A DNA stretch of 64,000 nt, taken from positions 32,001 to 96,000 of the forward strand of contig JAXMOL010000011.1 in NCBI GenBank assembly GCA_034669905.1, written 5' to 3'. Positions 33,110 to 36,109 of the stretch are shown in pieces (positions within the stretch are counted from its first letter, which is position 1; every line of letters starts with the position of its first letter). This DNA is from Candidatus Hydrogenedentota bacterium. Lineage in GTDB: Bacteria; Hydrogenedentota; Hydrogenedentia; Hydrogenedentales; JAEUWI01. Position numbers and translations under genes: made by a program. The notes under the pieces are model-generated. The model saw only the letters and a program-made list of their open reading frames with translations, made no database searches and was not told the DNA's origin.

Positions 33110-33883
33110 TCAGCCTTCCTGCAGCTTCCGCTCGAGCAACTGATTGAGTTCCTTGCTGAGGGCCGCAATCCGGGCATCCAGCGATTCATTGTCCACGTCT
33201 TTCTTTTTTTCGCTTTCGTGCACTTCCTGGTAGTTATTGAGGACGGCCCCCACCACCAGGTTGATAAGCAGGAAGGTACCGATCATGATCCAGGACACAT
33301 GGTAGGTGGTCACCACCCAGTAGTTCCGATGGGGCAGGCCGTCGTAGCGCAGGTCGGTCCAGTCTTCGCAGGTGAGCGAGCGAAAGAGGGAAAAGAAGGC
33401 TTCGTGGAGCGTGCCATATTCGCTGGGCTGCCCTTCCCCGAAGAGTTCCACGCCCATGACGGCGTAGATATAGAAGCAGATGGTCATGAGCAAGGCGATG
33501 TAGACCATGGAAGACAGGGACTTGATGAGGACGGAGACGATCAGCCGAAGCTCATCGAGGCCATCCACCAGGCGCAGCACCCGGAATACCCGGAGCACCC
33601 GTAGCAGGGTTGCGATGGTGGAGATGTTGGGCACGAATGCCGAACCGACGACGATGATATCGAAGATGTTCCAGCCATTGCTGAAAAAGGTCTTCAGGTT
33701 TTCGCGGGCGTAGAACTTGAGCGCCAACTCGACGACGAAGACCCAGATACAGACCCACTCCAGCAAACGGATAACGGGCGATTCCACGTAGGTCGACAAT
33801 CCAATCAGGAAGGCATTGAATATGATTACGCCGAGAATGATACGACCGAAAAGGGTGCTGTTAATAAACTTCTTGGGATGCAT
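33110..33883 (-). CDS. Voltage-gated cation channel, BacNav family (6TM)
   Basis: WNIFDIIVV (S3), LRVLRVFRVLRL (S4 with 4 Arg), pore filter TCEDWTD, S6 LINLVVGAVL and a C-terminal coiled coil. Start MHPKKF with a CAGGAG RBS. Confidence 0.93.
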   Translation of the reverse strand: MHPKKFINSTLFGRIILGVIIFNAFLIGLSTYVESPVIRLLEWVCIWVFVVELALKFYARENLKTFFSNGWNIFDIIVVGSAFVPNISTIATLLRVLRVFRVLRLVDGLDELRLIVSVLIKSLSSMVYIALLMTICFYIYAVMGVELFGEGQPSEYGTLHEAFFSLFRSLTCEDWTDLRYDGLPHRNYWVVTTYHVSWIMIGTFLLINLVVGAVLNNYQEVHESEKKKDVDNESLDARIAALSKELNQLLERKLQEG

Positions 33884-33952
33884 GGGGGCAACTACTCCTG
33901 ATTGCTGGAATCCGAAGGCGGGCATTCGCCGACATCCAGCGCGCTGTGGGCA

Positions 33953-36109
33953 TTAAAACACCGAGGTATAGGTAATGTATCCAAAAATGGCGAATGCCAG
34001 CGGGACGAGGGTCACCGCCGACACAAAGTCAAGTTTCAGGGCCATGGCGTCACGTTTCCGAATAACGAGCCAGTTGGCCACAATACTCTCCAGAATAAGC
34101 GTAAAGGTCAGAATATAGGCGCTCATGAAGTACTTGTCTGCGGACACCAGGTAGCCCACGTTGGGCCAGGCCTCCTCCTGGGAAAGGTGGAACACGAGGA
34201 TACTCAGGAGTGCGGTCATCACGAGGGATACCCGGGCGTCGAACTGGCTATTGGGAATCAGGAACATCAGCAGGCTGACCGAAACCATGATGAAGAAGGG
34301 CAGAAACAAGGTTACCAGATAGGGGAAAAGAATCCGCTTGATGATAATGTTGGTCTGGTAGATGGAGAACTCCACGTCACTGTCGCCACCGGTGTAGTTG
34401 GGGTCACCGAAGGTGGAGCTGAGCGCATGGGTTCCGGAATAGTCTTCCCGCCCGACATAGTCCCACTCTTCGGGATAGATCTCGTGGAGGTAGGCGTGGC
34501 TCAAATTCTTGGCGTCGAGCACCAGCATGATCTGGCTGGCATCTTTGCTCTTGTGTGATACCGTGATCGGCAGGTGCTGGGTATCAAAGGGAAATAACCG
34601 AACGTCATAGGGCGTCAGGTAGGTACCTTTAATCTTGTAACAGATGTACTTGATGTCACCGCTTCGGTCTTCCCGAAGCACTTCGGTTTTGTCCTCGATG
34701 CCATATATTCCGTTGAGGAAATCGATGTTTTCCACATCAATATCCCCTTCCCAGCGGAACCACATGAAGAATTCCACGTCGAAATTCTGTCCGGCCACAT
34801 CCACGCTATTGATACGGTAAAAATCGAGGCCGGCATAAACCACACGGGTCAGGTAATAAGGTATCTTGTCGCTCACCACGACTTCGTTTTCGGCAATGCG
34901 GGATTGAAGGTTGTTGAGGACATGGGGCTCGGTAACGCGGCGCAGCTGGGTAAAGGCCGGTTTGAACTGTCCATCGTCGATATAACTCACCACAATGGGC
35001 CGCCGCATCGCCCCGTGCTCGTCAAAGTAGAGTTTCCCCGTAATGCCCGTGAAAGCGTTTGCCGGTCCGTCGTAGGCCAGCAGCCCATTGCGGAGCGCGG
35101 TGCGGTCGGCTCCACTGGCCTCAATGGCCGCGGCGATCATGCGCCCGGCATCGTAGCAGAAGGCCCCCCATACCGTGGGAGCCACCTGGTATTTCTCAAA
35201 GTATTTCGCTTCATACTCCTGGGCGAACTGCTTGGTCATGAGCGAAGAAAGCTCATAGAGGAATGGACTGGACACATAGACCCCGGCCGTATCTTCGCCC
35301 AGGCTGGTGATAAAGTCCTGTTTCGCAAAGGAATCGGGCCCCATGACGGGCATGGTCACGTCGGCCTCACGCAACTGACGGACGAGTTTTCCACCGTCGG
35401 CGGTATGGGAGAAGAGCACCGCGGCATCGGCCGTGCCCCCCTGCGCGGCATCGAGCTGGGTGGCAACGAAGTCGGCTCCGAACTTGTTCTCTTCGCTATA
35501 GGGGATGGTCTGGACAATTTCCATACCCAAGCGACGGGCCTTGCGGCTGAAGCTTTCCAGCAGGCCCGTGCCATAGGCATCGTCAGAATGAATGACCAGG
35601 ACCCGTTTGGTCTTGAGCACGACCTGCAGATAGACCGCGAGGTTCTCCCCTTGAAGATCGTCCTCATAGTTCATACTGAAGGACCATTCGCTGCTCCGGG
35701 TCACCTTGGGATTACTGGCCGAAGGCGAAATGTGGGGCAATTGGTACTGGGCGTAGACTTCACTGGCGGCCAGGGCCACGCCGGAAAACTGGTGCCCGAT
35801 GACTGCGAGTATATTCGGATCTTTGCCGAATTGTCCGGCGATATTCCGCGCCATGTCGGCGTTATTTTGATCGTCCTTAAACACGATTTGGAGGGGACGT
35901 CCCGCGATACCGCCATTCTGGTTGGTGACTTCGACCAGCAATTCGAGGGCGCCACGCATGGCCCGACCCTCACTGGCGTTGCCGCCGGAAAGGGGCAGGG
36001 AGGCACCGAGCAAGACGGGTTCATTGGCCGCAGCAGCCAGTGTGAAGACAATCAGAAGTGCCAGTTGAAACATCGTGCGGCAGATTGGGTGCATCATAGG
36101 GTGGAGCAC
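33953..36109 (-). CDS. Pentameric ligand-gated ion channel (Pro-loop, ELIC/GLIC-like) fused to an N-terminal LivK-type periplasmic binding domain
   Basis: Signal peptide, then a type I PBP domain (LGASLPLSG, FKDDQ, VIGHQFS, ISPSAS, DAYGTG, YDA, GITGKLYFDEHG). Then an ECD with FDVEFFMWFRW and Pro-loop YDVRLFPFDTQ, and four TM helices (M1 PYLVTLFLP, M2 DARVSLVMTALLS, M2-M3 WPNVGYLV). Confidence 0.9.
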   Translation of the reverse strand: MLHPMMHPICRTMFQLALLIVFTLAAAANEPVLLGASLPLSGGNASEGRAMRGALELLVEVTNQNGGIAGRPLQIVFKDDQNNADMARNIAGQFGKDPNILAVIGHQFSGVALAASEVYAQYQLPHISPSASNPKVTRSSEWSFSMNYEDDLQGENLAVYLQVVLKTKRVLVIHSDDAYGTGLLESFSRKARRLGMEIVQTIPYSEENKFGADFVATQLDAAQGGTADAAVLFSHTADGGKLVRQLREADVTMPVMGPDSFAKQDFITSLGEDTAGVYVSSPFLYELSSLMTKQFAQEYEAKYFEKYQVAPTVWGAFCYDAGRMIAAAIEASGADRTALRNGLLAYDGPANAFTGITGKLYFDEHGAMRRPIVVSYIDDGQFKPAFTQLRRVTEPHVLNNLQSRIAENEVVVSDKIPYYLTRVVYAGLDFYRINSVDVAGQNFDVEFFMWFRWEGDIDVENIDFLNGIYGIEDKTEVLREDRSGDIKYICYKIKGTYLTPYDVRLFPFDTQHLPITVSHKSKDASQIMLVLDAKNLSHAYLHEIYPEEWDYVGREDYSGTHALSSTFGDPNYTGGDSDVEFSIYQTNIIIKRILFPYLVTLFLPFFIMVSVSLLMFLIPNSQFDARVSLVMTALLSILVFHLSQEEAWPNVGYLVSADKYFMSAYILTFTLILESIVANWLVIRKRDAMALKLDFVSAVTLVPLAFAIFGYITYTSVF

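Follow-up and report, generated by a model that had tools for sequence, protein, structure and literature searches.

Fusions of a type I periplasmic binding protein (PBP-I) domain to an ion channel of the pentameric ligand-gated type (pLGIC) have been known since 2005, when Tasneem et al. reported them from Magnetospirillum and Bradyrhizobium; the excerpted text of that paper proposes a chemoreceptor role for them (PMC549065). Likeness to periplasmic binding proteins is, according to a 2022 review (PMC9221113), seen in many of the N-terminal domains that prokaryotic pLGICs carry. The PBP-I::pLGIC architecture is therefore not new. The terms 'periplasmic', 'PBP' and 'N-terminal domain' are absent from the text of Jaiteh 2016 (PMC4795631), and no bench study of any PBP-fused pLGIC was found in the open-access literature. 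Here we analyze one such fusion gene, located on the minus strand (33953..36109) of a 64,000-nucleotide stretch of contig JAXMOL010000011.1 from a Candidatus Hydrogenedentota bacterium. This whole stretch is called the window below. The fusion protein likely senses a chemical and responds by admitting positive ions to the cell.

Domain layout of the fusion protein

The open reading frame (ORF) at 33953..36109 comprises 718 codons followed by a stop and is open from a GTG start, with a GAGG 8-13 nt on the 5' side of the GTG. It was taken as the whole fusion gene from the open frame, from the domain families recognized in it and from its full-length homologues: in a word-indexed search, about 35 relatives carrying both domains at full length came up, with identities of 30-94%. 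The domain order is signal peptide, type I PBP, conserved linker and complete pLGIC subunit. AlphaFold2, supplied with 32 relatives, gave a full-length model with a mean predicted local distance difference test score (pLDDT) of 87.7 and a predicted template-modelling score (pTM) of 0.79. The coordinates given for the domains are all on the minus strand.

Residues 1 to about 28 (36026..36109), read from the sequence as a hydrophobic core followed by AAA/N and modelled as a helix at 6-27, form a predicted signal peptide. A signal-like pattern is also present at the N-terminus of relatives, and export with cleavage is likely. The type I (LivJ/HAAT-type) periplasmic binding domain covers residues 33-380 (34970..36013). 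Over this span Pfam Peripla_BP_6 matched with an E-value of 1.9e-52 (179.5 bits against a cut-off of 31.7), and ANF_receptor matched with 6.1e-22. When the N-terminal 393 residues were compared with Protein Data Bank (PDB) sequences, the top matches were LivJ-type amino-acid binding proteins (3hut at 5.7e-35, 4gnr, 4mlc, 1usg and 1z15), and weaker ones were the ectodomains of mGluR, CaSR and taste receptors. Foldseek and the LivJ ligand anchors described below agree with this assignment. The original prediction had placed about 360 residues of type I PBP in front of the channel, and this proved correct.

The linker, residues 381-415 (34865..34969), consists of an FKPAFTQL strand and two short helices (395-399 and 401-406) leading to the channel outer domain. 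Its columns are conserved and it is modelled with confidence (pLDDT 86-94). It is followed by the extracellular beta-sandwich of the pLGIC, residues 416-592 (34334..34864), assigned from the modelled strands (beta-sandwich at 410-592 in the full-length model), from Foldseek matches to GLIC, sTeLIC, DeCLIC and GABA-A receptors, and from invariant residues. The transmembrane domain M1-M4 occupies residues 595-717 (33959..34327), with modelled helices at 595-617, 623-647, 653-683 and 687-717. Pfam Neur_chan_memb matched residues 603-686 at 7.3e-8, above its cut-off; NCBIfam LGIC_1 matched residues 465-700 at 1.3e-14, yet far below that model's own cut-off. Against PDB sequences the C-terminal 325 residues matched GLIC, GLIC-GlyR and GLIC-GABA-A chimeras, sTeLIC and GABA-A alpha5, with E-values from 1.2e-12 to about 1e-9.

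The structure models lead to the same layout. In a Foldseek search with the full-length model, all 44 matches listed were type I PBP-fold domains, including bacterial binding proteins, a LivJ-based sensor, and the ectodomains of GABA-B and mGluR5. The best fits reached target-normalized template-modelling (TM) scores of 0.84-0.92, with 3hut at 1.6e-28 and the Leu-bound 4q6b at TM 0.91. No channel was among these 44 listed matches, and the C-terminal half was then folded separately. Folded alone, it had a pLDDT of 89.9, and all 50 matches listed were pLGICs (GABA-A, GLIC, sTeLIC, DeCLIC, nAChR) with query-normalized TM scores of 0.56-0.76. The channel assignment of the original prediction, which had been staked on this half modelling as a pLGIC, is thereby upheld. 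The pLGIC hallmarks are intact, namely the Pro-loop FPFD, the pre-M1 Arg, the Leu at 9' and the M2-M3 Pro, and the M3-M4 loop is short, as in prokaryotic pLGICs.

To define the breadth of the family, 1.84 billion representatives were searched exhaustively: 26,832 matches passed E <= 1e-3, and 808 of them had E <= 1e-30. Among the best 150, most span the query in one stretch, from about residue 15-100 to beyond about residue 640. Both domains are present in 166 of 179 aligned sequences, and 162 of the 179 also have the Pro and Asp of the Pro-loop and a full outer domain, so that the class holds at least 162 two-domain relatives. Such recurrence argues that the arrangement is not due to chance. 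The outer-domain motifs of the fusion protein are the Pro-loop F506-P-F-D-T-Q511, loop C S565-T-F-G-D-P-N-Y572 and the pre-M1 R592. F506, P507, D509, Q511, R592, P604, R626, L634, L635, V639 and P649 are invariant in the 32 relatives, as are G568 in loop C and Q388 in the linker. Among the 166 two-domain relatives the Pro-loop Pro is kept in 160, D509 in 154, the pre-M1 Arg in 158 and the Leu at 9' in 136.

Ion selectivity, ligand pocket and gating

The pore-lining M2 (residues 623-647; 34169..34243, minus strand) was read from the sequence and from family conservation counts, and its register was set by alignment with M2 of GlyR and GABA-A receptors. The M2 string quoted in the original prediction, QFDARVSLVMTALLSILVFHL, is present in the sequence. 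In HMMER alignments with GLIC-GABA-A and GLIC-GlyR chimeras, D624, A625 and R626 face the P, A and R of GABA-A alpha1 and GlyR alpha1, which fixes the -2'/-1'/0' numbering; sequence and alignments thus bear out the earlier register D(-2')A(-1')R(0')...L(9'). In this register L635 is at 9', V639 at 13' and E645/E646 at 19'/20'. Both a charged ring at the cytoplasmic mouth and the hydrophobic 9' Leu gate are present.

The original prediction had further described M2 as having a hybrid selectivity signature. This is overstated. Instead of the P(-2') of the anion-type P(-2')-A(-1')-R(0') there is D624, and A-R is all that is shared. As 126 of the 166 two-domain relatives retain R(0'), this residue does not discriminate. 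The hybrid signature was rejected for these reasons, the anionic hallmark being replaced by Asp as in GLIC, and the M2 is better described as GLIC-like. Val at 13' and outer acidic rings at 19'/20' favour cation selectivity. The fusion protein has Val at 13' and Glu-Glu at 19'/20', both of which count against an anionic pore. In the excerpted text of a study on GLIC, E222 (-2') is a key selectivity-filter residue of cationic pLGICs (PMC5760087). In GLIC, too, E(-2') is followed by Ala at -1'. It is thus highly improbable that the pore is anion-selective or non-selective owing to its A(-1')-R(0') pair, even though the pair equals the GlyR and GABA-A rows.

Taken together, the acidic -2' ring, the absence of P(-2'), V13' and E19'/E20' predict cation selectivity. 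The earlier proposal that D(-2') means a cationic pore is reasonable by analogy with GLIC E222, and a cation-selective pore is the best prediction for the fusion protein; it is not a constant of the family. Among the 166 wider relatives, position -2' holds D (33) or E (18) in some, while G (31), S (24), A (16) and P (9) also occur there; in 19 closer relatives it is D or E in 13, while one has G-E-R and five are without an acidic residue.

To examine the clamshell, the PBP half and nine relatives were aligned with LivJ and LivK of E. coli K-12, the LivJ contact residues other than E226 being those given in the excerpted text of a docking study (PMC6983066). S79, T102, Y150 and A101 of LivJ are the counterparts of S109, S132, Y179 and A131 of the fusion protein, and E226 is the counterpart of D259. 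The LivJ residues that hold an amino acid by its alpha-carboxylate and its alpha-amino group are thus preserved, in S109, S132, D259 and Y179. Among the 166 relatives S109 is conserved in 134, S/T132 in 132, D/E259 in 123 and Y/F179 in 143. In contrast, the positions that line the side-chain pocket are changed (LivJ Y18 to E47, L77 to Q107, C78 to F108, A100 to S130, A103 to N133, Y202 to H235 and F276 to W314), and they vary widely across the 166 relatives. Anchors that are kept together with variable specificity positions would fit working binders of amino-acid-like ligands with a lineage-specific side-chain preference. The pocket is hydrophobic in LivJ, whereas in the fusion protein it is polar or charged (E47, Q107, S130, N133, H235, W314), which makes an amino acid with a polar or basic side chain, or else a related amine, likelier than Leu, Ile or Val. 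The ligand is therefore predicted to be of that kind, and probably not a branched-chain amino acid.

A single locus, that of a 55%-identical relative, has genes of polyamine metabolism upstream on the opposite strand (L006:112-3330, minus strand). They encode a pyruvoyl arginine decarboxylase, a fusion of S-adenosylmethionine decarboxylase with spermidine synthase, and a deoxyhypusine synthase, and hint, weakly, at amines as possible ligands.

No ATP-binding cassette (ABC) transporter gene was found among the neighbouring ORFs scanned against Pfam. Since the PBP is fused to a channel and the scanned neighbours include no ABC-importer gene, it is read as a PBP-fold sensor domain and not as a transport binding protein. 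On balance, it is probable that the fusion protein is a ligand-sensing, cation-selective homopentamer, in which closure of the tethered clamshell is transmitted through the FKPAFTQL linker and opens a GLIC-like pore. A small amino-acid-like ligand in the periplasm would bind and close the clamshell. The closure would then be transmitted via the rigid FKPAFTQL strand and the N-terminal helices to the beta-sandwich. The pore, presumably formed by five fusion subunits, would open, and influx of Na+/K+ would depolarize the cell.

Several points weigh against this reading. The AlphaFold2 model is that of a monomer. The role of D259 is derived from LivJ E226, with which it aligns and which we take to hold the ligand amino group. 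No more than 51 members of the wider set of 166 have an acidic residue at -2', so that selectivity varies across the family and the cation prediction rests on analogy. Furthermore, loop C (STFGDPxY) and several outer-domain aromatics are conserved at least as strongly as the PBP pocket. Such strong conservation of loop C argues against an idle canonical inter-subunit site; judged from these residues, the site may be a real agonist site or a docking surface for the PBP. The original prediction suggested that the appended clamshell may gate the pore in place of this site, a wording that is not supported. A real agonist site would accord with a capture-and-hand-over scheme, in which the PBP concentrates or pre-senses the solute and the agonist that opens the pore binds at the canonical inter-subunit site. 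This idea was proposed in the excerpted text of Tasneem et al. 2005 (PMC549065), and the constraint on the canonical pocket region favours it, since loop C STFGDPxY, W450, W453, Y488 and W549 are invariant or nearly so in the 32 relatives. Nevertheless we consider it unlikely: a tethered binding protein closed over its ligand has no obvious release to a second site, and the conserved rigid linker (Q388 invariant, pLDDT about 90) better fits mechanical coupling. In addition, the PBP-plus-outer-domain module is also found on MscS-type pores with a degenerate Pro-loop, which suggests that the module itself is the sensor.

The other explanation to be weighed is that the PBP is a ligand-free structural or modulatory domain that tunes assembly or kinetics, like the N-terminal domain of DeCLIC or the amino-terminal domains of iGluR, and that pH, ions or some other stimulus would gate the channel, as in GLIC, sTeLIC and DeCLIC. 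DeCLIC has been described, as of 2025, as the only pLGIC with a partly characterized N-terminal domain, and this domain merely modulates gating by accelerating its kinetics (PMC12664993), which is a further point against gating driven by the clamshell. For all characterized prokaryotic channels among the Foldseek relatives, the gating stimulus is protons, alkaline pH or depletion of Ca2+ (entry titles; PMC9897478, PMC12664993). However, the backbone-anchoring residues are kept in about 75-85% of the 166 relatives while the specificity positions vary, a pattern typical of ligand binders, and a ligand-free PBP is thus quite unlikely. Ligand-induced closure of the clamshell is therefore the preferred candidate for the step that opens the pore.

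Neighbouring genes and the wider family

A gene for a single-domain voltage-gated cation channel of the BacNav/AnclNav type lies at 33110..33925 (minus strand), co-oriented with the fusion gene. It has 271 codons and its first ATG is 27 nt after the fusion stop; judged from the sequence, the true start is likely M15 (33883), with AGGAG in front of it. No terminator-like site was seen on the minus strand between the two genes, and they are probably co-transcribed. The protein matched Pfam Ion_trans (E 4.7e-45), and its top PDB matches were repeat II of CaV channels and NaChBac (1.5e-40). It was assigned from its Ion_trans domain, from the four Arg that recur at every third residue of S4, and from its filter, T-C-E-D-W-T-D, which has the T-x-E-x-W form.

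From the acidic E-D-W-T-D residues a Ca2+-selective neighbour was considered at one stage and then dropped. According to the excerpted text of PMC7041947, NavPp, whose filter TLEDWTD has these five residues too, conducts Na+, and Ca2+ blocks it; it is Gly, not Asp, at filter position 4 that gives Ca2+ selectivity in CavMr. With a NavPp-like filter and Asp at position 4, a Na+-permeable channel is by analogy the better guess. Filter position 2 of the neighbour is Cys; it is Leu in the filters quoted in the excerpts of PMC7041947.

The distribution of the two genes was followed in the genus. The full-length fusion was found in four of nine genus genomes searched (G000, G007 and G005, and in two pieces on separate contigs in G004), and in none of 32 other genomes of the order, which gave PBP-only matches at <= 30% identity. 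An orthologue of the voltage-gated channel is present in eight of the nine genus genomes at 69-95% identity. In G000 and G007 the fusion sits between the channel gene and maoC. It is directly upstream of the channel in G004 and adjoins maoC in G005, a contig end hiding the other side in each case. In all three genomes with a readable downstream side, the channel gene follows the fusion directly. Four genomes without the fusion (G001, G002, G006 and G008) have the order 3-keto-disaccharide hydrolase, channel, divergent maoC and yajQ-like gene, with a gap of about 240-480 nt between channel and maoC. In place of maoC or the fusion, G003 (contig C12; L065:506-2965) has a family B DNA polymerase and unannotated ORFs upstream of the channel. 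The site upstream of the voltage-gated channel thus appears to be variable, and the fusion is gained or lost at this variable spot directly in front of a resident channel gene. Composition gave no signal of recent horizontal transfer either way, the GC content of the gene (0.556) and that at third codon positions (0.711) being within the range of its neighbours. Pfam scans of neighbouring ORFs in the window gave Ion_trans, MaoC-like, 3-keto-disaccharide hydrolase and, weakly, methyltransferase.

The pairing is local to the genus. By tblastn the voltage-gated neighbour was absent from 38 of 41 loci, being present in the locus of the window and in those of two close relatives (92% and 83% identical fusions). 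Pfam scans of 43 flanking ORFs from 17 more distant loci, together with three fusion ORFs, revealed neither Ion_trans nor a universal neighbour. An operon of fusion and voltage-gated channel conserved across the family was rejected on these two results. Many of the distant loci are short, so the pairing is not general, yet not shown to be absent elsewhere. In three distant loci a PBP-containing gene adjoins the fusion or fusion-like gene, namely a PBP-MscS fusion in L006 and L004 and, in L010, a PBP gene truncated at the end of the contig. Immediately upstream of a 38%-identical fusion relative is a gene for a CLC-type chloride channel (L009:336-1886). Genes of other channels (CLC, MscS-fusion, BacNav) recur beside the family, with no single recurring partner.

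The adjacency raises the idea of a two-gene chemo-electrical relay, in which depolarization driven by the fusion opens the NavPp-like channel. A periplasmic solute would open the pentameric channel, the resulting depolarization would open the voltage-gated channel, and the amplified Na+ entry would drive a behavioural or homeostatic response. Resting on adjacency in one genus, this is decidedly unlikely; if true, a single operon would encode a bacterial counterpart of the postsynaptic membrane.

In longer relatives the PBP-I::pLGIC core is extended by another domain (P0112, P0105, P0113, P0129, P0134, P0149, P0165, P0138, P0188, P0140 and P0200). The additions after M4 are a type II binding protein (SBP_bac_1/8) in some, a PnrA-like Bmp domain in one and a cadherin domain in one; the chain end after M4 would face the periplasm in these proteins. 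Another longer relative has DUF697 at its N-terminus. A sister family carries the PBP-I and a pLGIC-type extracellular beta-sandwich on an MscS-type pore, often with a C-terminal cyclic-nucleotide (cNMP)-binding domain (L006:5910-8771, L004:4980-8378 and L030:4977-7775; P0038, P0039, P0042, P0151, P0159, P0176, P0196 and P0202). In it GDPxY of loop C is kept and the Pro-loop FPFD is lost. The outer domain of the fusion protein matched the MscS fusion P0038 by BLASTP at 3e-15, and hhalign of 162 pLGIC outer domains with 11 middle domains of MscS fusions gave a probability of 100% (E 6.7e-52, 192 columns).

The gene is one of at least 162 candidates and not a unique object. It is compact and well modelled (pLDDT 88), its gating motifs are intact, its pore is predicted to be cationic and it has a voltage-gated neighbour, which make it a reasonable pick for study. 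How a clamshell communicates with a pentameric channel is a structural question with parallels in glutamate receptors, and there is potential for engineered biosensors.

Comparison with known systems

The closest described proteins are the PBP-I-fused 'ART-LGIC' of Tasneem et al. 2005 (PMC549065). In the excerpted text they have the same order of PBP-I, outer domain and four transmembrane helices, and the same predicted role as solute receptors. The examples given there are alpha-proteobacterial, whereas the present fusion is from Candidatus Hydrogenedentota. The operon partners named in the same excerpts are PBP-II, Cache and a Na+/H+ symporter, and a voltage-gated channel is not reported among them. 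Adjacency to a NavPp-like channel is the sole element for which no prior description was found. The neighbour itself consists of one domain of six helices, as do the 'AnclNav' channels NavPp and CavMr in the excerpted text of Shimomura et al. 2020 (PMC7041947), and the AnclNav label is used here for likeness of the filter. Its TCEDWTD differs from TLEDWTD of NavPp at position 2 only and has Asp, not Gly, at position 4. The excerpts of that paper contain no mention of AnclNav channels adjacent to a ligand-gated channel.

Among the solved prokaryotic pLGICs, GLIC, sTeLIC, ELIC and DeCLIC share with the fusion channel the fold (query-normalized TM 0.68-0.76), the Pro-loop and the short M3-M4 loop, but identity is only 14-20%. 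GLIC has an acidic -2' followed by Ala at -1', as has the fusion protein. GLIC, ELIC and sTeLIC are without an extra N-terminal domain, in contrast to the fusion protein with its PBP, and the extra domain of DeCLIC consists of two jelly-roll lobes (PMC12664993) and is not a PBP.

On the side of the clamshell, LivJ and LivK of E. coli and the HAAT proteins 3hut, 4gnr, 4q6b and 1z15 have the same fold (target-normalized TM up to 0.92), and their backbone anchors are kept. LivJ and LivK are free in the periplasm and belong to an ABC importer (LivHMGF), whereas the PBP of the fusion is tethered to a channel and the hydrophobic side-chain pocket of LivJ is replaced in it. The same clamshell fold, likewise tethered to a membrane signalling module, is found in the ligand domains of mGluR and GABA-B and in the amino-terminal domains of iGluR. 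The membrane module of the fusion protein is a pentameric Pro-loop channel, while that of the eukaryotic receptors is a 7-transmembrane receptor or the tetrameric pore of glutamate receptors. The likeness is a convergence of design, not orthology.

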